NCBI GenBank assembly: GCA_964521195.1
Contig: CAZFRE010000001.1
Span: 200,239 to 264,238, forward strand
Source: an uncultured Eubacteriales bacterium
GTDB lineage: Bacteria; Actinomycetota; Coriobacteriia; Anaerosomatales; JAAXUF01
DNA length: 64,000 bases
Direction of reading: 5' to 3'
Part shown: positions 15,031-59,693 of the stretch, piece after piece
Position numbering within the stretch: position 1 is the stretch's first letter
How the letters are laid out: the number at the start of each line of letters is the position of its first letter
The notes under the pieces: generated by a model
Told to the model about the DNA's origin: nothing
Databases searched by the model: none
The model's input: the letters and a program-made list of their open reading frames with translations, nothing else
Translations under genes and position numbers: made by a program

Positions 15031-15061
15031 CGAACGGCCGCCGGAGTCGCCGGCGGCCGTT
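15031..15061 (-). terminator. Intrinsic terminator-like hairpin downstream of the SHOCT gene
   Basis: 13-bp perfect stem GAACGGCCGCCGG / CCGGCGGCCGTTC with a 5-nt loop. On the minus strand it is followed by GCGTTTCG. Confidence 0.55.
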
Positions 15062-15084
15062 CGTCAGGTGCGATCGTCGGTGGT

Positions 15085-30016: not shown

Positions 30017-31507
30017 CTAGAGGTACTCCCAGACGTCGTCCACGCCGGCCTCGATGGCCGAGACGCACTCGCTGACCCAGTGCACCGGCTGCCCGGTGGT
30101 GGTGTCGACGAGTCGCAGGTCGAGCACCTCGGGTGTCTCCAGCCAGCGGCCGTTCGCGTCGATGAGTACCTTCACGCGCGGGTGGAGCAGGTCGTCGTTG
30201 TTGACGCGGAAGACGACCGCCGTCGAGCCGTCGTCCAGGACCACCACCGCACCCATCGGATAGATGCCGAGCATCGCCACGAGCGCCTTGGTGATGTTGG
30301 GTTCGTATGCCTTGCCCCGGCCCTGCATGAGCACGGCCAGCGCCTTGTCCGGGCGGATCTCTCGGCGGAACGGACGCGTCGTGGTCATCGCGTCGTACGC
30401 ATCGCACACTGCGACGATCTTGCTGTAGAGATGCTGCTCGGAGCCGCGGGACTCGGGGTAGCCGAGCAGGTCGTGGCGCTGGTGGTGCTCGAACGCGACG
30501 ATCATCGGCATCTTGTCCTCGAGCTGCAGCCGCTTGAGCAGGTCGGCGCCCTCCTCGCTGTGGCGTTTCACGAGCGACCATTCCTCGGCGGTCAGCGGAC
30601 CGGCCTTGGTGAGGATCTCCTCGGGGATGCGGACCTTGCCGATGTCGTAGAGCAGTGCAGCCAGCCCGAGCGAGCGGACGTCGTCCTTGGTCAGTCCCAG
30701 CGCCGAGCCGAGAGAGATGGCGAGGATGCACACGTTGATGCTGTGGTTGAGCGTGTAGTCGTCGTGGCCCTTGATGGCGGTGAGGCCGAGTACGGCGGCG
30801 GGGTCCTGCAGCAGGTTGTCGAGCATCGACTCGACGACGCGCTGCAGCGGACCGGTGTCGAGCGCGCGACCCAGTTTCGCCTGCATCTCGACGTCGCGCA
30901 TCGCCGTGATGCCTGCGTCGTAGCTCTCGCGCGCCCGGGCGCGGACCTCGCGGTTCTTCTGCTCGTCGCCGGTGTCCTCGAGCGTGGTCGTCTCGGCGAC
31001 GGTGATCGACGTGACGCCGCGGCCGTCGAGGTACATGCGGGCGGCATCGATGTCGACGATCTCCTCGGCGGCGACGAGCTCGACGAGAGCGGCGACCTCC
31101 TCGGCGGTGGTCATCGCCGTGAAGGTGACGGCGGAGATGCCGCGGGCGAGGAGCTCCTCCACAAGCTTGGAGTACGTGACGCTCTCCTCCGAGAAGATCT
31201 GGTTCTCGACGAAGACGGTGCCCTTGTAGATGTTGATGGTCACCTCGTCGAAGCCGGTGGCGGCGAGCGCGCGCAGCACGCCCACGAAGTCGGCGAGCGC
31301 CTGCACGACCGAAGGGTGCGACGTCGGGTACAGCGTGGCATTGGTGTAGGCCACTGCGAGCGTGCGGACGAGGTCGCGGGCGCGCTCGAGCTTCTCGGGG
31401 GTCGCGAACGGCGCCTCGACGGCGACGAACCGGCTCGCTTCGGACGCCAGTTCGGTCGGCGAAGCGAGCGGTCCCTCGTTCTCCGGGCGATACGGCATGT
31501 CGGTCAC
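30017..31507 (-). CDS. HD-GYP family protein with substituted metal-binding motifs (YD for HD, HHQ for HHE)
   Basis: HSINVCILAISLG..LAALLYDIGKVRIPEEILTKAGPLTAEEWSLVKRHSEEGADLL..AFEHHQRHDLLGYP. A ~230-aa N-terminal module contains LYPTSHPSV. Start is GTG 31507, overlapping the upstream stop (GTGA), or ATG 31498. Confidence 0.8.
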   Translation of the reverse strand: MTDMPYRPENEGPLASPTELASEASRFVAVEAPFATPEKLERARDLVRTLAVAYTNATLYPTSHPSVVQALADFVGVLRALAATGFDEVTINIYKGTVFVENQIFSEESVTYSKLVEELLARGISAVTFTAMTTAEEVAALVELVAAEEIVDIDAARMYLDGRGVTSITVAETTTLEDTGDEQKNREVRARARESYDAGITAMRDVEMQAKLGRALDTGPLQRVVESMLDNLLQDPAAVLGLTAIKGHDDYTLNHSINVCILAISLGSALGLTKDDVRSLGLAALLYDIGKVRIPEEILTKAGPLTAEEWSLVKRHSEEGADLLKRLQLEDKMPMIVAFEHHQRHDLLGYPESRGSEQHLYSKIVAVCDAYDAMTTTRPFRREIRPDKALAVLMQGRGKAYEPNITKALVAMLGIYPMGAVVVLDDGSTAVVFRVNNDDLLHPRVKVLIDANGRWLETPEVLDLRLVDTTTGQPVHWVSECVSAIEAGVDDVWEYL

Positions 31508-33408
31508 TGCGGGTCAGCTCCTTCTGCTGTCGCTGCGCGGTCGATGTCGGCGAGCGCCTTGCGCGCCATCAAACGCAGCTCTCTGCTCTTTCTGCCCATC
31601 ACGAGCTTCCGGTCCGCGGTTCGCCGCAGGGCCCTCGCGGCCTCCGGCGTGCCGATCAGACCGAGAGCGCGGATGATCTCCTTCTTGGTCTCGTGCGAGC
31701 GCATCACGTTGAGGTCCTCGAGCGCGCGCGTGAGCTGGTGGATCGCCGGCGCGGCCTTCACCCGCCCGATCTCTCGCACGGCGAACCGCTGCGTCTCGGG
31801 CTCGGGATGGTTGAGCGCCTTGATGAGCGCGGCGCCGGATTCCGGCGCGGTCGTATCGGCGAGTGCCGTGATGGCGGCGAAGCGCACCGACTCGTTGAGG
31901 TTGGTGAGTCCCTGCGACAGGATCGGCACCGCACGGCGGTCGCCGAGCGCGGCGAGCGTGCGCAGCACCGCGATCGCGGCGACGGGGTCGTCGGTGCGAA
32001 GCTTGGTGCGCGCCACGCCGATGACCGCGTCGCCCATCGCCCGCAGCGCAGGGCGCAGGAGCGAGCGCCGGCCCTCGTTGCCGCGGATGTAGGCGTTGAG
32101 CAGCGCCTCAGCTCCGGCAGGGCCGGCAGCCGAGAGGATCTCGCCGGCGATCGCCGCGTCCGCGTCGTCGACGACGCTCGTGCAGATGTCGGCCAGCACC
32201 GCCGGCTCCATGAGCGTGGCGCGCGCGGCCGAGACCGCGTCGGCCATCGAGTGCTGCTGGCCGAGCTCATCGAGCCGCCGCATCGCCTCGCGCACCTCCG
32301 GGAAGGCACCCGCACGCGCCGCCGGCGCCAGGCACTCGCCGATCGCGCGCGCGGCGTCGGGCTCGGGGTGCGTGCGCGAGACCGCGACGGCCGTCGTGAG
32401 CGCCCGGCCGGCCGACAGGCGCGGCGAGGCGATCTCGACCTGACGCTGCAGCTCGCTCGTGTCCTCGACGACCGCCATCTCGCGCGCCATGCTCTGGGCG
32501 CCCTCGGTCGAGCTCTCGCCGTCGTCGGGCGAGCGCGCCGGTGCGAGCATCTGCTCGATGAGCCGGGCCTTGTCGCTGGGCAGCGGCAAGGCCGCGGCGA
32601 CGCGCCGCGGGTCGGTCGGCGCCTGCGCGGCGACGAGCATCAGCAGGCGGGCGAGCGCCGCCGGCTTCATGTTGGCGATGATGCCGAGCATGCCCTCCAT
32701 GCGGGCGCCGTTGCCGTCGGCCTTGAGCGAGAACGCGAGCACCTTCATGCGCGACTTCTCGTCGAGCCGCATGAGCGCGTCGGCGACCCGCTTCACGGCG
32801 AGTTCGCGGGTAGCGGCCTCGAGCCGGCCGATCGCCTCGGCCATCTCGTCGTGGCCGGGGCCTTCTGTCTTCTGCCAGCGTTCGGCGGCGGCGACCACCT
32901 CGGCCGCGATGTCGTCGAGCGGCGCCGTCATCAGGTCCACGCCGAGAAGTCCGGTCTCCTCGGAGGCGCGCAGCGAGACCTCGATGACCGCGAGGTGCGA
33001 GACGCCGGCCCCCATGAGCGCGCTGCGCGGCCCGCCCGCGGCCCGGATCGCTGCCGGCTCGGCGTTGGCGACCGAGAGGAACGCGGCGGTCTCGGGCTCC
33101 AACACGCCCGGCGCGATGATCAGCTGGCCGACTTGCAGTGCGTGCAGGGCCTCGGCGAGTGCGCCTGTCTGCGTGTTGCCGACCGCGAGCGCGGTCTCGC
33201 CGATACGGAAGCCGTGGGGGTCGACGATGATGCGCAGCGGGCCGGTGGCGACGAGCTCGTTGGCGCGTGCGGTGAAGCGGGCGGCCGCCTCCGCAGGAAG
33301 CGGCGACGTCGGCGGATACAGGCGCGCGGCGCCGGCCGCTGAGGCCAGCAGCCGCAGCGCTTCCTCGGCGCGCGGGTATCCGTCAGACTCGGTGCTCACG
33401 CTGCACAT
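31504..33408 (-). CDS. HEAT-repeat protein with an N-terminal module shared with the downstream HD-GYP protein
   Basis: C-terminal HEAT/PBS-lyase-type repeats: DRRAVPILSQGLTNLNESVRFAAITALADT, SGAALIKALNHPEPETQRFAVREIGRV, AAPAIHQLTRALED. The N-terminus contains LYPPTSPLP. AAGGAGG abuts ATG 33408, so GTG 33399 may be the real start. Confidence 0.75.
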   Translation of the reverse strand: MCSVSTESDGYPRAEEALRLLASAAGAARLYPPTSPLPAEAAARFTARANELVATGPLRIIVDPHGFRIGETALAVGNTQTGALAEALHALQVGQLIIAPGVLEPETAAFLSVANAEPAAIRAAGGPRSALMGAGVSHLAVIEVSLRASEETGLLGVDLMTAPLDDIAAEVVAAAERWQKTEGPGHDEMAEAIGRLEAATRELAVKRVADALMRLDEKSRMKVLAFSLKADGNGARMEGMLGIIANMKPAALARLLMLVAAQAPTDPRRVAAALPLPSDKARLIEQMLAPARSPDDGESSTEGAQSMAREMAVVEDTSELQRQVEIASPRLSAGRALTTAVAVSRTHPEPDAARAIGECLAPAARAGAFPEVREAMRRLDELGQQHSMADAVSAARATLMEPAVLADICTSVVDDADAAIAGEILSAAGPAGAEALLNAYIRGNEGRRSLLRPALRAMGDAVIGVARTKLRTDDPVAAIAVLRTLAALGDRRAVPILSQGLTNLNESVRFAAITALADTTAPESGAALIKALNHPEPETQRFAVREIGRVKAAPAIHQLTRALEDLNVMRSHETKKEIIRALGLIGTPEAARALRRTADRKLVMGRKSRELRLMARKALADIDRAATAEGADPQ

Positions 33409-52637: not shown

Positions 52638-54097
52638 ACGACACGAACGGCGCCGCAGCCGGCGAAACCGCATCCGTCCCCGCCGAGAAGCCCCGCCACA
52701 AGCCATCCCGCGGTCCCCGCGTGCCCATGCCCGAGCGTGAGGCCACGGAGCGTGCGAGCGTATTCGACGAGGTCGGCTACGGCTACACGCCCGAGATGGC
52801 GCTCGAAGAGGCGATGCGCTGCCTGCAGTGCAAGAACCCGACGTGCGAGGCCGGCTGCCCGGTCAACATCGAGATCCGCGACTTCATCGGCGCGATCATC
52901 GAGGGCGACACGAAGCGCGGCGTCGAGATCATCAAGCGCCGCAACGCGCTGCCCGCGGTCTGCGGCCGCGTGTGCCCGCAGGAGACACAGTGCGAGGCCG
53001 CGTGCGTGCTCGCGAAGAAGGGCGACCCGGTGGCCATCGGCCGCCTCGAGCGGTTCCTCGGCGATTCGGACCTGGCGTGCGAACTCGACGGCCGCTGCGT
53101 CCCCGAGAAGGCCGCGCCGAGCGGCTACCGCTGTGCCGTCGTCGGCTCCGGACCAGCAGGCCTGGCGTGCGCGGGCGAACTCGCGGTGCTCGGCCACGAG
53201 GTCACCATCCTCGAGTCGCTGCACGCGCCCGGCGGCGTGCTCTCCTACGGCATCCCCGAGTTCCGGCTCCCCGAGCAGGTACTCGCGGCCGAGATCGAGA
53301 CCCTCACTGCGCTCGGCGTGACCATCCAGACCGACACCGTCGTCGGTGCGCTCGTGAGCGTGGCAGAGCTCCTGGGCGACGAGGGCTACGGCGCCGTCTT
53401 CATCGGCAGTGGCGCCGGCCTGCCGGTGTTTCTCGGCGTGCCGGGGGAGAACCTCAACGGCGTCTACTCGGCCAACGAGTTCCTCACCCGTGTGAACCTG
53501 ATGCGCGCCTACGAGTTCCCGAAGGCCGACACACCCGTGTGGCGCGGGCGGAAAGTCGCGGTCGTGGGCGGGGGCAACGTCGCGATGGATGCGGCGCGCA
53601 CGGCCCTTCGTCTGGGCGCCGAGGAGGTCTTCCTCGTCTACCGGCGCACGGAAGACGAGATGCCGGCGCGCAAGGAAGAGGTTCACCACGCGAAGGAGGA
53701 GGGTGTCGAGTTCAAGATGCTCTGCTCGCCGCAGGAGATCGTCGGTCGCGACGGCTTCGTGACCGGCATCGTCGCGACGCGGATGGAACTCACCGAGCCG
53801 GATGCGAGCGGTCGCCGCGCGCCGGTGTGCGTGATGGGCAGCGAGTTCACGATCGAGTGCGACACGGTCATCTCGGCGGTGGGAACCCGCGCGAACCCGC
53901 TGCTGGCCAAGGCGGCGCCGGAACTCGAGCTGACGAAGCGCGGCTACATCGTGGCCGACTCGGAGGGTGCGACGAACCTGCCGGGCGTGTTCGCCGGCGG
54001 TGACATCGTGACGGGAGCGGCCACGGTCATCCTCGCGATGGGTGCCGGCAAGACCGCAGCGCAGGCGATGGACCGCTGGTTGCGCGAGACTCACTGA
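52625..54097 (+). CDS. NADPH-dependent glutamate synthase small-chain-like oxidoreductase (NfnB/GltD family)
   Basis: EEAMRCLQCKNPTCEAGCPVNIEI..LPAVCGRVCPQETQCEAAC (2x[4Fe-4S]); CAVVGSGPAGLACAGEL and VAVVGGGNVAMDAART (two Rossmann motifs). Overlaps the previous gene by 13 nt. Confidence 0.88.
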   Translation: MPSVDDTNGAAAGETASVPAEKPRHKPSRGPRVPMPEREATERASVFDEVGYGYTPEMALEEAMRCLQCKNPTCEAGCPVNIEIRDFIGAIIEGDTKRGVEIIKRRNALPAVCGRVCPQETQCEAACVLAKKGDPVAIGRLERFLGDSDLACELDGRCVPEKAAPSGYRCAVVGSGPAGLACAGELAVLGHEVTILESLHAPGGVLSYGIPEFRLPEQVLAAEIETLTALGVTIQTDTVVGALVSVAELLGDEGYGAVFIGSGAGLPVFLGVPGENLNGVYSANEFLTRVNLMRAYEFPKADTPVWRGRKVAVVGGGNVAMDAARTALRLGAEEVFLVYRRTEDEMPARKEEVHHAKEEGVEFKMLCSPQEIVGRDGFVTGIVATRMELTEPDASGRRAPVCVMGSEFTIECDTVISAVGTRANPLLAKAAPELELTKRGYIVADSEGATNLPGVFAGGDIVTGAATVILAMGAGKTAAQAMDRWLRETH

Positions 54098-54242
54098 GCT
54101 GCGTCGCCTGACGCGTCGAATGACGCGCCGCAGCGCGTTCGCGTCAGTGGGCTTGGGTAGAATCCTGCTTGGACGAACGGTGCATCACGCCGTCTGTCAG
54201 GTGGTATGGTGGGATTATTCGGCAGCAACATTGGAGTGAACG

Positions 54243-54986
54243 GTGTCAGACGAACCAGTCAATGTGCTTGTCATCGACGACGACGAGGCCATCGTCGACA
54301 TGGTCCGAATGGGCCTCGAAGCTGACGGGATGCAGGTATTCTCGGCCGCGGACGGCGGGGAAGGTGTCGACGTCCTCGGCAGTGAGCGCATCGACGTCAT
54401 CCTTCTCGACATCATGATGCCGCGCGTCGACGGCTGGATGACCCTGATGGAGATCCGCAACAACCCCTCGACCGCACACATCCCGGTGATCATGGTCACG
54501 GCCAAGACCCAGGAGCTCGCGAAGGTCCTGGCGTTCAAACAGGGCGTTCAGCAGTACGTGACCAAGCCGTTCAGCATCATGGAGCTCTCCGCGCGCGTCG
54601 AGAGCCTGACGCGCACCAACCGCGCGGGCCACGGTGAGCCCTCGGGCGAGTCCGACTTCCGAAAGCTCGCGGTCCGCAAGGGCGGACGGACGGTGCTGCT
54701 CACGATCGGCGACATCATCTTCCTGTCGGCGCGCAACAAGTCGACATACGCGCACACCTACGAGAACCAGTATCTCGTCGACATGACCCTCGGCGAGCTG
54801 GAAGGCAAGATGGCGCGCGAGGCGTTCTCGCGGGTGCACCGCAGTTACCTCGTGAATCTCAACAAGGTCAAAGAGATCCTGCGCGTGGACGGCTGCTACG
54901 TCGTCGTGGCATCCGATCGAGACGAGACGCACATTCCGGTGGCGCGGCGTCAGGTTCGCGCATTCAGAGAGGCGGTGGGCATCTGA
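54243..54986 (+). CDS. Response regulator with LytTR DNA-binding domain (LytR/AlgR/AgrA family); no adjacent histidine kinase
   Basis: Receiver: VLVIDDDEAIVDMV..DVILLDIMMPRVDGW..PVIMVTAK. LytTR: GRTVLLTIGDIIFLSARNKSTYAHT..FSRVHRSYLVNLNKVKEI..IPVARRQVRAF. Start is GTG 54243. Confidence 0.9.
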   Translation: MSDEPVNVLVIDDDEAIVDMVRMGLEADGMQVFSAADGGEGVDVLGSERIDVILLDIMMPRVDGWMTLMEIRNNPSTAHIPVIMVTAKTQELAKVLAFKQGVQQYVTKPFSIMELSARVESLTRTNRAGHGEPSGESDFRKLAVRKGGRTVLLTIGDIIFLSARNKSTYAHTYENQYLVDMTLGELEGKMAREAFSRVHRSYLVNLNKVKEILRVDGCYVVVASDRDETHIPVARRQVRAFREAVGI

Positions 54987-56026
54987 TGGTCCTGTGGCCC
55001 AGAGCGGTGAAGCGGTCCCTGTTCGTGCTGGCGTTGTCGTGTGCGCTCGCCGCATCACCTGCCATCGCGTTCGCCACGAGGACGATCGGACTGTCGTCCG
55101 GGACGTTCAGCTTCGAAGTACCGGAGTCCGGCGAGCTGACGGGATCGGTCGTCGTGAGCTCGGAGGGCGATGAGGCGATCAAGGTCATGGTCTACGCGGC
55201 GGACCAGAAGATCGATGACAAGGGGAATGTCAGCTACGTCGCCCCCACGCGCGCGGACATCAACTCGCTCGGTAACCCGTCGTCCTGGGTCAAGATCAAC
55301 ATGCCCGCGGACAGCAAGTCCATCGGCAACGTCCCGTATCTCGAGCTTGCGGCGGGCGAGAAGGTGCCCATCAAGTTCGCGCTTTCCGTGCCCAAAGACA
55401 CCACGCCGGGTGACCACAACGTCCTCATCTTCTTCGAGTCGTTCGATCTGCCCGAGGGCGGTGGCTCGCAGTCGGTGATCTCGGGGCGGCTCGGCGCACG
55501 CATCCAGCTCAAGGTGCCGGGCGAGCGCTTCAAGAAGATCGAAGTCCGCCCGTTCAACGTCCCTGCGTTCGTCATGAACGGCGAGGTGCCCTACGACTTC
55601 ACCACCATGAACCAGGGCAACACCGATGTCAGGGTGGGCGCGCGCATCCTGTTCCTCGACCGTAACGGCAACACCGTCGCCGAGCAGACGCCTATCAACG
55701 GGCGCACGCTGTTCGCCGGCAGCAACACGCTCTCGACGGGCACGGTGCTGGCCCAGGGCTTCGCCGTGGGTCCGCACAAGGTACGGCTCGACCTCACCGA
55801 GGTCGACGACGAAGGCAAGGCGGTCAACCAGGGGGCCGACACGATCACGCAGGAGAAGACCGTCTGGCTCATTCCGCTGTGGCTCATCATCGCCGCGGGG
55901 GCATTCGTGGTGATCGTGCTGGTGCGCGTGATCTGGTCCGCCGCTGCCCGCAGCACGCGACGCAAGGCCCAGCGTGAAGAGGAAGCGATGCGCGCCGAAG
56001 CGTTAAAGCAGGAGGGCGACGCGTAG
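54986..56026 (+). CDS. Membrane-anchored cell-surface protein with DUF916/DUF3324-like (CscA-like) architecture
   Basis: The start ATG overlaps the regulator's stop (TGATG). Signal peptide KRSLFVLALSCALAASPAIAFA. Two beta-rich modules (FSFEVPESGELTGSVVVSSEGDEAIKVMVYAADQKIDDKGNVSYV..PGDHNVLIFFESF; RLGARIQLKVPG..VRVGARILFLDRNGN..GPHKVRLDL). C-terminal TM helix LIPLWLIIAAGAFVVIVLV, then a charged tail. The family assignment is by architecture and motif resemblance only. Confidence 0.6.
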   Translation: MVLWPRAVKRSLFVLALSCALAASPAIAFATRTIGLSSGTFSFEVPESGELTGSVVVSSEGDEAIKVMVYAADQKIDDKGNVSYVAPTRADINSLGNPSSWVKINMPADSKSIGNVPYLELAAGEKVPIKFALSVPKDTTPGDHNVLIFFESFDLPEGGGSQSVISGRLGARIQLKVPGERFKKIEVRPFNVPAFVMNGEVPYDFTTMNQGNTDVRVGARILFLDRNGNTVAEQTPINGRTLFAGSNTLSTGTVLAQGFAVGPHKVRLDLTEVDDEGKAVNQGADTITQEKTVWLIPLWLIIAAGAFVVIVLVRVIWSAAARSTRRKAQREEEAMRAEALKQEGDA

Positions 56027-56073
56027 GAGGAGATACGTCCTGAGAGTGCTGTCCCCATCGTTGAACGGCAAAC

Positions 56074-56106
56074 AGAAAGCCCCGGGCGAATCGCCCGGGG
56101 CTTTCT
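56074..56106. terminator. Bidirectional intrinsic terminator between convergent genes
   Basis: Perfect 16+16-nt palindrome AGAAAGCCCCGGGCGA-A-TCGCCCGGGGCTTTCT between the stops at 56026 (+) and 56128 (-). Confidence 0.8.
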
Positions 56107-56127
56107 TGTGACCGTGTAGCGGCGGTA

Positions 56128-56571
56128 CTAGTTCTGCGTTGCGGTGTAGACGACCGTGGCGGTGTGGGCGCCCGGAGCGCAGTCCCACGGCACGTCCAGC
56201 GTGTAGTCGTCGGTGTAGTCGCGGGACGCGGTCTTCGTCTCGCCAGTGACGTCCGTGAAGCTCGTGGAAAGGCCGATCGGGGTTGCGTCGGTGATCGACT
56301 TGGTCAGGTCGTACGCCTTGTTCGACTTGACGTTGAGGCCGACCGACTTGCTGCCGTACGAGCTGCCCGGATCGACGGTACCGAAGTCGACGGTCTGGAC
56401 GCCGGGGTCGGTGGTCGTGATCGTCAGCGTCAGCTTGGAGTTGACGTTGGCGTTCACCGTGACGGTGCCGGGGTCACCGCTGGCATACGTGGCAACGTCG
56501 GCGCTCGCGACGGAGACGGCGCTGAGGAGCAGGGCGACTGCGAGGGCAGCCAAGATCATGGTCTTCTTCAC
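56128..56571 (-). CDS. Small secreted beta-rich protein homologous to the C-terminal domain of the 914-aa surface protein (WxL-like role, no W-x-L motif)
   Basis: GGAGGGA lies upstream of GTG 56571. Signal peptide MKKTMILAALAVALLLSAVSVASA. The mature part contains KLTLTITT..VDFGTVDPGSS and ends YTLDVPWDCAPGAHTATVVYTATQN. Confidence 0.75.
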   Translation of the reverse strand: MKKTMILAALAVALLLSAVSVASADVATYASGDPGTVTVNANVNSKLTLTITTTDPGVQTVDFGTVDPGSSYGSKSVGLNVKSNKAYDLTKSITDATPIGLSTSFTDVTGETKTASRDYTDDYTLDVPWDCAPGAHTATVVYTATQN

Positions 56572-56688
56572 TTCGATCCCTCCATAATTCCGGTTTGAAT
56601 GACCTTCGCCTTAAGTTGGGACCGATTGGCCCAGTTCCTCCGGCTATCCATTTCTCGGTACACGTGATGTGCGTCATGACGGCTTTGC

Positions 56689-56718
56689 GACGAACGGCAG
56701 ATATCGTCAGACGAACGG
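56689..56718 (-). promoter_or_regulatory. Tandem 9-bp direct repeat with a 12-bp spacer (LytTR-box-like)
   Basis: GACGAACGG (56689-56697), CAGATATCGTCA, GACGAACGG (56710-56718). On the minus strand each unit reads CCGTTCGTC. It lies in the 377-bp divergent intergenic region, 118 nt upstream of the small secreted protein's start. Confidence 0.55.
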
Positions 56719-56948
56719 GGATAGTTGCGGGGTCGATCCCCAGACCGCCCGGTTGGCGTGAGACTCTCGATCTGCTGCATCAGGCGCCTCGACTTGCATG
56801 AGTTGGAAGCGTTTGTGCTTTAGCACTCCACTCAAAGCCCGCAATAGCCGATGATAGAACCGAACGTGCACCTAACGGCGCGCGTACTTGCGTATAGGCG
56901 CAATCGGATAGAGCGCCCGATCGCAAACCGGGAAGGGACTGCGGGGCA

Positions 56949-59693
56949 GTGGGGCTGGCCGTGACAACGGGACGCGGGAGAGCTGTGCGCAGCGGCGCAT
57001 GGGCCATCGGGCTCATGGGCGCGCTGTGCGCCGTCGCGCTGCTGGTGGCGCCGGTTCCCGCTCGCGCGCTCGGGCCGAATGCGGTCCGCAACCCGACCGG
57101 GGCGATGGCGACCCAGGTCACGCCTGCCGACGACACGAGCAACCTTGTCGTCGATCTGCCGTTCGAGATGAACTGGAACGGGACCCCGTTCAGCCAGATC
57201 TACATCAACATGAACGGCAACTGCACATTCGGAAACACATTCACCGAGTGGGATCCGAACCCGACGCTCGCCTCTCGGAACCGCAACATCATGGCGCCCT
57301 TCTGGGCTGACGTCGACACGCGCAACGCCGCGTCAGGCAAGCTGTGGTACAGCGATGTCACGAATCCCCCATTGGTGGACGGGCATGAAGCGTTCATCGT
57401 CACGTGGAACGGCGTTGCTCGCTACAACAACACGGCCACACCGCTCGACTACTTCCAGCTCGTGCTGATCGATCGATCCGACATCGCCACCGGGGACTTC
57501 GATTTCGAGTTCAACTACGACCAGATGTTGTGGGATCGCGGAACGGCCGCGTCGACGGGGTATGCGAGGGCCGGCTGGGCGATCAACGGCGGCGCGTCCT
57601 ACGAGTTGCCGGGTGCCAACTCCAGCGGAGCACTTCTGGACAGCGGTGCCGCCTCGACCTCGCTCATCAAGAACTCGTTGAACTCCGGCGGGCAGCTCGG
57701 CCGGTACGTCTGGCAGGTGCGCAACGGTTCGCCGCCCGTGACCGCCCGTACGATCACCGTCACGGACCGGACGCTCGAGGGCAACACCAGGGGTGCGTAC
57801 GCCGTCTACACCGGGGTCGGCGACTACACGGCAGACACCGGTGTGCAGAGCATCACGACATCGCCGTCGCTTCCTGCAACGCTGCCGCTCGGCACGCACA
57901 CGATCGAGTGGACGGCCCTCTTCGCCGGGGGGATCACCGCAACTGCGACACAGGGCGTCGTCGTGACCGACACGACGCCGCCGTCCGCGCCGATCGTGAC
58001 GAGCTCCACACACACCGCGGGAACCTGGACGAACGTGCCGACTGTCACGGTGACCTCGGTCAACTCGACCGACCTGTGCTCGGGCATGCAGGATGCGCGC
58101 TACTCGTGGACGCTCGATGCGCCGGGCGCGGCGGATACCGCGGCATCGACTACCGTGGCGACGACGACGATCACGACCACGACGACGGTCGAGTCTCAGG
58201 ACTTCTCGGCGGGGACCTGGCCCGCTGACTGGGTCCGGAGCGGGGACACCGGGTTCGCCCGCTTGTCCGCGACACGGTTCCACCTCGAGGCCAACGGCGC
58301 CGAGGTGTACGACGACAACAACAACAACACCCGACGTACGGTGACTTTCGCGAAGACGTTCGACCTGAGCGCATACGACAGCGCCACCATCTCGTTCTGG
58401 GACAACCGGTCGGCCTTCTCCAGCGCCGCAGACTACAAGCGCGTCCGCTACTCCACGAACGGCGGCGGCTCGTGGACGAACATCTACAACGTGACCGGCG
58501 CACAGGCCACCGCGCAGGGCTGGCTACAACAGGGCTCCACGCTGCCGACGGCGGCGGCCGTGATCGTCCAGTTCACCGGCAGCGTGAACGCGGCCACCGA
58601 GTACGTGAACTGGGACGAGATCCTTATCCAGGGCGTGGAGTACGACACCGACCGGCATCTGCAGTCCACCGAGACCACCGAGCTGCCGGACGGGACGTGG
58701 TATTACAACCTCCAGACGCGAGACGTGGCCGGCAACTGGTCGACGGCAGGCACCTTCGGGCCCGTGCGCATCGATCGCTACCCGCCGCTGACGACCGACG
58801 ATGCACCGGGCACGTGGGCGACAGCTCCCGTCACCGTCTCGCTGACGGCGACCGATGCGGGCAGCGGCGTTGCGGGAACGCGCTACCGGGTCAACAGCAG
58901 TGCCGTCACCAGCTACACCGCGCCGTTCGTCATCTCGCTCGAGCAGACGAACACGCTGTACTACCAGTCAGTGGACAACCGGGGCAACTGGGAGGCCACC
59001 AAGTCGGTGAGCGTCCGAATCGACGCAGAACCGCCTACCGTGCCGACGTCGTTCACCGCGAGCGCTGCGACGACCACGAGCGTCGACATGTCATGGAACC
59101 CGTCGACCGATACCACCTCCGGCCTGTCGCACTATCGCATCTACCGTGACGGGTCGTTCGTGGCGACGTCGGGCGCCACCACCTACGTGCTGTCGGGACT
59201 GACCGCCAGCCAGACCTACACCTTCAACGTCGCCGCGGTGGATGTGGCCGGCAATATCTCGGCACTCTCGACCACCGAGACGGTGACCATGCCGCAGTCG
59301 CAACTCTGGATGACGATCGAGCCGACTTCCGTGAGCCTGGGCACCATGGATCCGGGTGACACCGCGACACTGACCCAGGCGACGACGATCACGGTGGGTG
59401 GCGTGGGCAGCTTCGACTACACGCTTTCGACGTACAGCGAGGACTTCACCGCAGTCACCTCAGCGGCGCCCGTTCCGACGATGACGGTGAGTGCGCTCTC
59501 GTACCAGATGTACGGCTCCGGCACACAGCCGTGGACCCCGTTCACGACGACAAGCCAAGATATCGCGACCGGCACAGGTATCAGCGACGTGTGGTCGCAC
59601 CCGTACTACTTCGACTTCAGGCTCGCGACGCCCTGGGACGCGTCACCCGGCACCTACACCTCGCGGGTGACCTACACGGTCGTCGCGAACTAG
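56949..59693 (+). CDS. Large secreted multidomain surface protein (NIDO-like, HYR-like, Ig/FN3 domains, C-terminal domain shared with the 147-aa protein)
   Basis: Signal peptide AWAIGLMGALCAVALLVAPVPARA. NIDO-like: FSQIYINMNGNCTFG..NIMAPFWADVDTR..AFIVTWNGVARYNN..YFQLVLIDRS..FEFNYDQMLWD..GRYVWQVRNG. HYR-like: LPLGTHTIEWTA..VVVTDTTPP. FN3: PTSFTASAATTTSVDMSWNPSTD..SHYRIYRDG..LTASQTYTFNVAAVDVAGN. It ends FRLATPWDASPGTYTSRVTYTVVAN. The start (GTG 56949) is uncertain. Confidence 0.8.
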   Translation: MGLAVTTGRGRAVRSGAWAIGLMGALCAVALLVAPVPARALGPNAVRNPTGAMATQVTPADDTSNLVVDLPFEMNWNGTPFSQIYINMNGNCTFGNTFTEWDPNPTLASRNRNIMAPFWADVDTRNAASGKLWYSDVTNPPLVDGHEAFIVTWNGVARYNNTATPLDYFQLVLIDRSDIATGDFDFEFNYDQMLWDRGTAASTGYARAGWAINGGASYELPGANSSGALLDSGAASTSLIKNSLNSGGQLGRYVWQVRNGSPPVTARTITVTDRTLEGNTRGAYAVYTGVGDYTADTGVQSITTSPSLPATLPLGTHTIEWTALFAGGITATATQGVVVTDTTPPSAPIVTSSTHTAGTWTNVPTVTVTSVNSTDLCSGMQDARYSWTLDAPGAADTAASTTVATTTITTTTTVESQDFSAGTWPADWVRSGDTGFARLSATRFHLEANGAEVYDDNNNNTRRTVTFAKTFDLSAYDSATISFWDNRSAFSSAADYKRVRYSTNGGGSWTNIYNVTGAQATAQGWLQQGSTLPTAAAVIVQFTGSVNAATEYVNWDEILIQGVEYDTDRHLQSTETTELPDGTWYYNLQTRDVAGNWSTAGTFGPVRIDRYPPLTTDDAPGTWATAPVTVSLTATDAGSGVAGTRYRVNSSAVTSYTAPFVISLEQTNTLYYQSVDNRGNWEATKSVSVRIDAEPPTVPTSFTASAATTTSVDMSWNPSTDTTSGLSHYRIYRDGSFVATSGATTYVLSGLTASQTYTFNVAAVDVAGNISALSTTETVTMPQSQLWMTIEPTSVSLGTMDPGDTATLTQATTITVGGVGSFDYTLSTYSEDFTAVTSAAPVPTMTVSALSYQMYGSGTQPWTPFTTTSQDIATGTGISDVWSHPYYFDFRLATPWDASPGTYTSRVTYTVVAN

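Follow-up and report, generated by a model that had tools for sequence, protein, structure and literature searches.

The binding sites of LytTR-domain regulators follow the consensus [TA][AC][CA]GTTN[AG][TG], with a spacing of 12-13 bp (PMC5600425). The AgrA boxes of agr P2/P3 in Staphylococcus aureus and the ComE and PlnC-type boxes are 9-bp imperfect direct repeats that fit this consensus, 12-13 bp apart, located just upstream of a suboptimal promoter and facing the activated gene. In the LytTR Regulatory Systems (LRS), the usual spacing between the repeats is 12 bp (range 11-13), and 4-11 bp separate them from the -35 downstream (PMC6193735). For AlgR of Pseudomonas aeruginosa, the published core is CCGTTCGTC, found in RB1 and RB2 of algD and in ABS1 of both algC and rhlA (PMC4064291). 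Here we describe a pair of units with this same core in a 64,000-nt stretch of DNA (the window; contig CAZFRE010000001.1 of assembly GCA_964521195.1) from an uncultured member of the Coriobacteriia. The pair lies in a 377-nt intergenic region with divergent genes on either side, one for a small secreted protein and the other for a large surface protein with NIDO and fn3 domains. All positions follow the numbering of the window, and L-numbers designate the related loci that were compared with it. Judged from the sequence, the two CCGTTCGTC units (56718 down to 56689) are quite probably the operator of a neighbouring response regulator with receiver and LytTR domains (REC+LytTR), placed in the promoter of the small gene. 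An earlier note on this DNA had proposed a LytTR-type operator at this place, and the proposal is supported by the motif, the spacing, the orientation and the linked regulator but chiefly by the conservation of its position.

On the plus strand, GACGAACGG occurs twice with the 12-nt spacer CAGATATCGTCA between the copies and a start-to-start period of 21, and a repeat search returned the same pair. Read on the strand of the small gene (minus), each unit is CCGTTCGTC; with the 5' neighbour included, the units become gCCGTTCGT or cCCGTTCGT, and both satisfy 8 of the 9 positions of the LytTR consensus. The repeat is oriented toward the small gene, whose start (56571) is 118 nt away from position 56689. 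In all these respects (the exact 9-bp repeat with its 12-bp spacer and 21-bp period, the coordinates, the consensus count, the distance and the strand) the earlier note was correct, and the consensus that it had used is quoted in PMC5600425. As the unit is of the AlgR type and the pairing is at 12 bp, the site therefore has an AlgR-type core in an AgrA-type architecture.

The evidence that carries this reading comes from related loci. The small secreted protein has 16 relatives, all of them in assemblies of uncultured Coriobacteriia or Actinomycetota, and 37 loci were fetched using a profile of the small proteins and exact look-ups; the repeat was compared between the window and the 14 further loci with sufficient upstream sequence, whose small proteins share about 35-75% identity. 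A 9-(11/12)-9 direct repeat with the consensus (A)CCGTTYRTC is present on the strand of the small gene in the window and in all 14 further loci, where the pairs are imperfect and occupy the same position as the repeat in the window. The earlier note had named a lack of the repeat in orthologous intergenic regions as a refutation; the repeat was present in all those compared, and the proposal passed this check. The spacer measures 12 nt except in L031 and L020, where it is 11 nt (13 and 2 of the 15 loci), and the distance from the end of the proximal unit to the start codon is 114-127 nt in 14/15 loci (117 nt in the window), with L020 at 157 nt. The proximal units of the orthologues match 7-9 of the nine LytTR consensus positions, mostly all nine. 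When 12 non-redundant loci were anchored on the proximal unit, the mean pairwise identity was 0.28 in the upstream flank, 0.61 in the distal unit, 0.41 in the spacer, 0.83 in the proximal unit and 0.24 in the stretch between the promoter-like boxes described below.

A position-weight matrix built without the locus under test (leave-one-out) was used to search the 250 nt upstream of each small gene, with 1000 shuffles. The best pair of the window was exactly the repeat described above, with 24.2 bits, a score that none of the 1000 shuffles equalled, and the best pair on the opposite strand reached 8.7 bits; P was <= 0.005 in all 14 loci tested. In a scan of 247 kb of loci, all pairs of at least 18.7 bits were on the strand of the small gene, and the best antisense pair (L033) scored 18.6 bits. 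Independent new matches were found upstream of the first small gene in a tandem array (L006). A second family of secreted open reading frames (ORFs) of about 100 aa, with the motif SNVPWRL(S/T)L, has a 9-11-9 pair of its own (L016, 837-1252; L021, 3113-3502, and the same in L022), and small surface proteins of more than one type are probably part of the regulon. As a separate observation, a 9-12-9 pair in the opposite orientation, CCGTTCGAC-N12-CCGTTCGGA, is found just upstream of the proximal unit in L005 (139-169) and L033 (5820-5850), with equivalents in L001 and L028. These loci belong to the group with a degenerate distal unit, and they have no divergent gene that the reverse pair could serve.

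The regulator presumed to bind the repeat is encoded close by, with 1.7 kb between the end of its gene and the repeat, as the earlier note had also stated. According to tblastn comparisons, it belongs to a conserved module composed of the regulator, a membrane protein and one to three small secreted-protein genes, with tandem paralogues in loci such as L006. It accompanies the module in 21 of the 22 loci with a full membrane-protein gene, with an identity of 68-85% across loci (tblastn). In 8 orthologues the residues Asp12, Asp13, Asp56 and Lys108 do not vary and the LytTR domain hardly does, which fits a conserved DNA specificity and control by phosphorylation. None of the named LytTR equivalogs of NCBIfam was reached, the best full-length model being BtsR, whose cut-off of 246 bits is far above the 89 bits obtained; among solved structures the LytTR domain of 3d6w comes closest (E 7e-8), and AgrA aligns only weakly.

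The leader of the regulator gene holds a third copy of the 9-mer, antisense to the gene and missed by the earlier note. The regulator promoters have a textbook GGGTA(C/G)AAT -10, and in the window the copy comes just after a strong -10, TAGAAT (54158-54163; GGGTAGAAT). Among the distinct regulator leaders examined, 17/18 have GAYRARCGG after the -10 (L022 duplicates L021, and L021 has no match). The gap is about 4-31 nt: 14 loci have 4-9 nt, and the longer gaps, to a maximum of 31 nt, are those of L002, L015 and L026. The arms of the leader can pair, and two covarying pairs point to a hairpin or an inverted repeat; a search of Rfam gave nothing credible in 53900-57100. The leader copy is a candidate for autoregulation, at a repression-like position, or for a 5' stem-loop, and it could be both.

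Two promoter-like boxes follow the proximal unit on the strand of the small gene. The putative -35-like hexamer of the window begins 11 nt downstream of the unit, which, with the 12-nt spacer, compares with 4-11 bp and 12 bp in the LRS (PMC6193735). At this position the other loci have ATGACA (L029), ATGACG (L013), TTGACG (L018) or TCTAATG (L001, L005, L028, L033 and L034). The 10-bp palindrome CGTCATGACG that the earlier note had seen beside the repeat is indeed present at 56672-56681, but it is incidental, its conserved half being at the expected -35-like position. We rejected it as a separate operator: no other locus keeps the palindrome, and only its TCATG/ATGAC part is conserved. The second box, with an invariant CCGA, starts 29-31 nt after the proximal unit in 15/15 loci.

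The 8-mers around CCGA (ACCGAGAA in the window, CCCGATAA in L034 and GCCGATTA in L031) have 5-7 of 8 matches to the sigma-28 -10 consensus GCCGATAA, for which the P. aeruginosa fliC promoter has the -35 TCTAAAG-N14 (PMC12784957). Judged against the pattern for sigma-28 (FliA/WhiG/SigD), that is, a -10 GCCGATAA with a -35 TAAA/TCTAAAG about 14-15 nt upstream, the window matches 6/8 in ACCGAGAA and 3/7 in CGTCATG, and L034 (TCTAATG-N15-CCCGATAA) matches 6/7 and 7/8; the TCTAATG-N15 of the L001/L034 group resembles the sigma-28 -35 of P. aeruginosa fliC. No sigma-70 promoter was found by a scan of 54000-57100. Given this likeness and the negative scan, the CCGA box is therefore read, tentatively and with somewhat more doubt than confidence, as the -10 of an alternative sigma-28-like sigma factor. 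No sigma factor is encoded among the 50 called genes of the window or, in the other loci, within some 6 kb, and no search aimed at a sigma-28 gene was made outside the window. Where the TCTAATG box is good, the distal unit is degenerate, and where it is poor, both units are good (Spearman rho -0.83 between distal-unit quality and -35 box quality); this is the pattern expected of an activator that compensates for a weak -35, and it remains suggestive because the loci are not phylogenetically independent.

Several points weigh against taking the repeat as the operator of the neighbouring regulator. That the regulator binds the repeat is something that we infer from the sequence. No histidine kinase (HisKA/HATPase) is encoded in the window (50 called genes), nor in the orthologous loci over a distance of about 6 kb, and the promoter of the regulator itself has no 9-12-9 pair, having a single or inverted unit instead. 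A recognisable housekeeping -10 is absent from the core promoter of the small gene. In the L001/L005/L028/L033 group, the distal unit matches only 4-5 of the 9 positions. The loci are related, such that common descent, rather than selection, could account for part of the conservation, although the near-random flanks speak against this. At the scale of the whole window, the exact repeat is not statistically unusual, and mononucleotide shuffles of the 64 kb also attain the motif-pair (position-weight-matrix) score of the site.

These last figures bear on whether the repeat arose by chance and has no function. Exact direct repeats of 9 nt or more with a period of 21 number 5 in the window, 4 of them in coding sequence, where periods that are multiples of three are favoured; periods 20-22 combined give 6 repeats, and shuffles give about 1.5. 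With five such exact 9-mers in the window, the exactness of the repeat is weak evidence. The earlier note had considered an identical 9-mer at a fixed offset very unlikely by chance; as scores and repeats are matched window-wide, this is therefore valid only inside the 377-nt intergenic region and was overstated for the window. The GACGAACGG 9-mer has 7 copies in the window against 1.5 expected, and this enrichment was rejected as evidence of a regulon, as the copies are explained by the operator (2), the regulator leader (1), one half of a terminator hairpin (1) and coding sequence (3, with CCG-TTC-GTC being preferred codons). The hairpin copy, at 15040-15065 on the minus strand, forms the 5' arm of a hairpin rich in GC (GAACGGCCGCCGG/CCGGCGGCCGTTC) with a short run of T (TTT) behind it; this is likely a terminator after a SHOCT-domain gene and not an operator. 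The motif-pair scan of the window gave no second credible site. Against an origin by chance, the motif, with its position, phase and strand, has been kept in 14 other loci whose flanks have diverged and which, from the identities of their small proteins, are not near-identical strains; a chance repeat is thereby extremely improbable. The case rests on conservation, not on the exactness of the repeat.

Another question is which gene the site serves. The earlier note had placed it in a divergent promoter region shared by the two surface-protein genes, and the repeat could indeed control mainly the 914-aa NIDO/fn3 gene, or both genes equally: it lies in their shared gap, 231 nt before the NIDO start, AlgR sites can act in either orientation and at a distance, and a GCCGATGA box is present upstream of the NIDO gene in the window (56847-56854, plus strand) and in L029. 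However, a NIDO gene placed divergently to the small gene occurs only in the window, L029/L030 and L036, and the position and orientation of the repeat relative to the small gene are kept in L001, L028, L031, L033, L034 and L035, where no divergent NIDO gene exists and DUF711 or another gene on the same strand lies upstream. As the site is retained where that gene is absent, it therefore serves the small gene, and the shared promoter of the earlier note gives way to the promoter of the small gene. The scans of the window and the loci found no second 9-12-9 pair facing the NIDO gene, and control mainly or equally of that gene is very unlikely. The 9-mer GCGTTTGTG (56808-56816), which ends 30 nt before a CCGA box at 56848-56851, was considered as a NIDO-facing site and rejected: it lacks a partner unit, and neither L029 nor L036 has retained it. 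The identity of the bound protein is a further matter, as the repeat could be the conserved operator of a different DNA-binding protein encoded elsewhere, with the adjacent regulator having other targets. The regulator without a linked kinase and without a pair in its own promoter would agree with this, and further families bind direct repeats, BldC being an example (PMC5859096). We consider it unlikely, since the unit is identical to a proven site of a LytTR protein (the AlgR core), the LytTR consensus, the 12-bp spacing and the distance to the putative -35 all fit, regulator and site co-occur, and a unit of the motif is found in the regulator leader in 17/18 distinct loci. The neighbouring regulator could also bind the site as a repressor or roadblock, as AlgR represses some promoters (rhlI) and the related unit in the leader, just after the -10, is in a repression-like position. 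Yet the pair lies upstream of the sole conserved promoter-like boxes without overlapping them, in the activator geometry of AgrA, ComE and HdrR, and the quality of the distal unit drops as the -35 box improves (in loci that, as said, are not phylogenetically independent); repression at this site is thus very improbable in our opinion.

If the neighbouring regulator is the protein that binds the repeat, the following mechanism may be proposed. Asp56 would be phosphorylated by a kinase encoded elsewhere, and a dimer of the regulator would occupy the repeat with one LytTR domain per 9-bp unit, the units being two helical turns apart. The bound regulator would then activate the weak core promoter downstream, formed by the ATGACG hexamer 11 nt and the CCGA box 30 nt after the proximal unit. 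If CCGA is a sigma-28-type -10, the units would be centred near -49 and -70, and the 5' untranslated region would be about 73 nt long. The antisense third unit after the regulator's own -10 would suggest autoregulation. A wider scheme is speculative and, in our judgement, unlikely to hold as a whole: the regulator, the coupled membrane protein and the pilin-like secreted protein or proteins would make up a module for surface fibres that is complete in itself, has no kinase and is conserved at a core-genome position in uncultured Coriobacteriia. In it the DUF916-like protein, and not a histidine kinase, would feed the state of assembly or of the envelope back to the regulator, as LRS partners do, the output would need both the AlgR-like operator and a sigma-28-type factor, and the leader 9-mer would close a negative feedback.

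Table 1. Features of the locus; positions refer to the 64,000-nt window.
Feature	Positions	Strand	Remarks
Promoter-distal LytTR-type unit CCGTTCGTC	56710..56718	-	Exact repeat; conserved across loci
Spacer between the units, 12 nt	56698..56709	-	Length kept, sequence diverged across loci
Promoter-proximal LytTR-type unit CCGTTCGTC	56689..56697	-	Best conserved block
-35-like box ATGACG (56677 down to 56672), inside palindrome CGTCATGACG	56672..56681	-	Starts 11 nt after the proximal unit; putative assignment
ACCGAGAA, invariant CCGA box	56652..56659	-	Candidate sigma-28-type -10; position conserved
Small secreted protein, 147 aa, signal peptide	56128..56571	-	Presumed regulated gene; GTG start at 56571, GGAGGG ribosome-binding site
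REC+LytTR response regulator	54243..54986	+	Presumed binder; Pfam Response_reg 2.6e-27, LytTR 9.8e-23
Third 9-mer copy GACGAACGG (54172-54180), 9-nt gap, CCGTCTGTC (54190-54198)	54172..54198	+	Antisense to the regulator gene; missed by the earlier note
Membrane-anchored surface protein, 346 aa	54986..56026	+	ATG and regulator stop overlap by 1 nt
Divergent NIDO + fn3 surface protein, 914 aa	56949..59693	+	Pfam; optional neighbour, control by the repeat not supported

The small protein has no Pfam or NCBIfam family, and look-ups of the exact sequences of this protein and of the regulator of the window returned no entry. Its AlphaFold (AF2) model is a beta-sandwich with a predicted local distance difference test (pLDDT) of 78.6, in which residues 1-31 are disordered or a signal peptide. 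Its top Foldseek matches in the PDB are the chaperone-usher pilins FimA, CfaB and PapA, which are weak (E about 8e-3). The C-terminal 39 residues resemble the C-terminus of the NIDO protein (59577-59693; E 9e-7). The genes of the regulator and the membrane protein meet in TGATG at 54984-54988, where the TGA of the former and the ATG of the latter share one base, an overlap that suggests that the two are translationally coupled; the orthologous loci show the same adjacency. The membrane protein has only weak, sub-threshold matches to WxLIP_PGBD (DUF916), in 8/9 orthologues (best E 5e-4), and a PDB profile search with this protein gave no match. The small and large proteins with a common C-terminus are analogous in arrangement to the WxL surface loci of Firmicutes, but membership is not supported, as no WxL domain was found in the small protein or its 16 relatives.

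In the related loci, the module lies in a conserved housekeeping setting of pth, an M23 peptidase gene, a gltD-like gene, DUF711 and an ACT-domain gene. The module of the window is surrounded by a housekeeping stretch (metG, tatD, ksgA, ispE, spoVG, glmU, prs, L25 and pth), and its position is conserved. Elsewhere in the window, at 30080-33342, two long overlapping ORFs (670 and 549 aa) have an unusually high first-position GC (0.81-0.93), a third-position GC (GC3) below that of their neighbours and no Pfam match, and the gene calls there are doubtful.

For a lineage known solely from metagenomes, these data offer a concrete candidate assignment of regulator, operator and target, and in it an orphan REC+LytTR regulator is connected with secreted surface proteins that resemble pilins and make up a small family. 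What is more unusual about the locus should be taken as leads rather than findings: an AlgR core within a 9-12-9 site of a Gram-positive bacterium, a core promoter of sigma-28-like type, a conserved module that lacks a kinase, and a product resembling pilins. The presence of the core CCGTTCGTC in the classical 9-12-9 layout, next to a distant Gram-positive LytTR regulator, could inform how LytTR domains read DNA; it extends what is known of the family and does not alter it.

Compared with the described systems, the locus shares with the AgrA, ComE and PlnC-type boxes the spaced 9-bp direct repeats that fit the LytTR consensus and their position just upstream of a suboptimal promoter, here a putative one, facing the presumed target, whereas the core of those boxes is of the ACAGTTAAG type and that of the present site is CCGTTCGTC. 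Those boxes belong to peptide quorum-sensing cassettes with an adjacent kinase (AgrCA, ComDE) and autoinduction via the same boxes. Neither a kinase nor a peptide gene is present here, and the two features of an Agr/Com-type cassette, the adjacent kinase and the autoinduction of the regulator via the same direct repeat, were not found. The LRS of Streptococcus mutans (HdrRM/BrsRM) have the same 12-bp repeat spacing (11-13), their distance of 4-11 bp to the -35 compares with that to the putative -35 here, and the co-transcription of a LytTR regulator with a membrane protein, with no kinase, is a likeness to the present locus. Unlike the regulator described here, which has a canonical receiver domain, the LRS regulators lack one, and their partner is a small polytopic membrane inhibitor, in contrast to the 346-aa, mostly extracellular protein with one C-terminal anchor. 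The sites of AlgR in P. aeruginosa (algD RB1/RB2/RB3, algC, rhlI, rhlA and fimU) are mostly single 9-mers at variable distance and orientation (PMC4064291) and not 9-12-9 pairs; AlgR has the linked kinase AlgZ/FimS, none being linked here, and its host is a proteobacterium whereas ours is a monoderm actinobacterium. Nevertheless, the two share the same 9-bp core, and the variants CCGTTTGTC (as in RB3) and CCGTTCATC (as in rhlI) that occur in the orthologous loci are documented AlgR sites (PMC4064291). Like the presumed binder of the repeat, AlgR is a REC+LytTR response regulator, and it too controls surface-appendage genes, those of the minor pilins fimU-pilVWXY1E.

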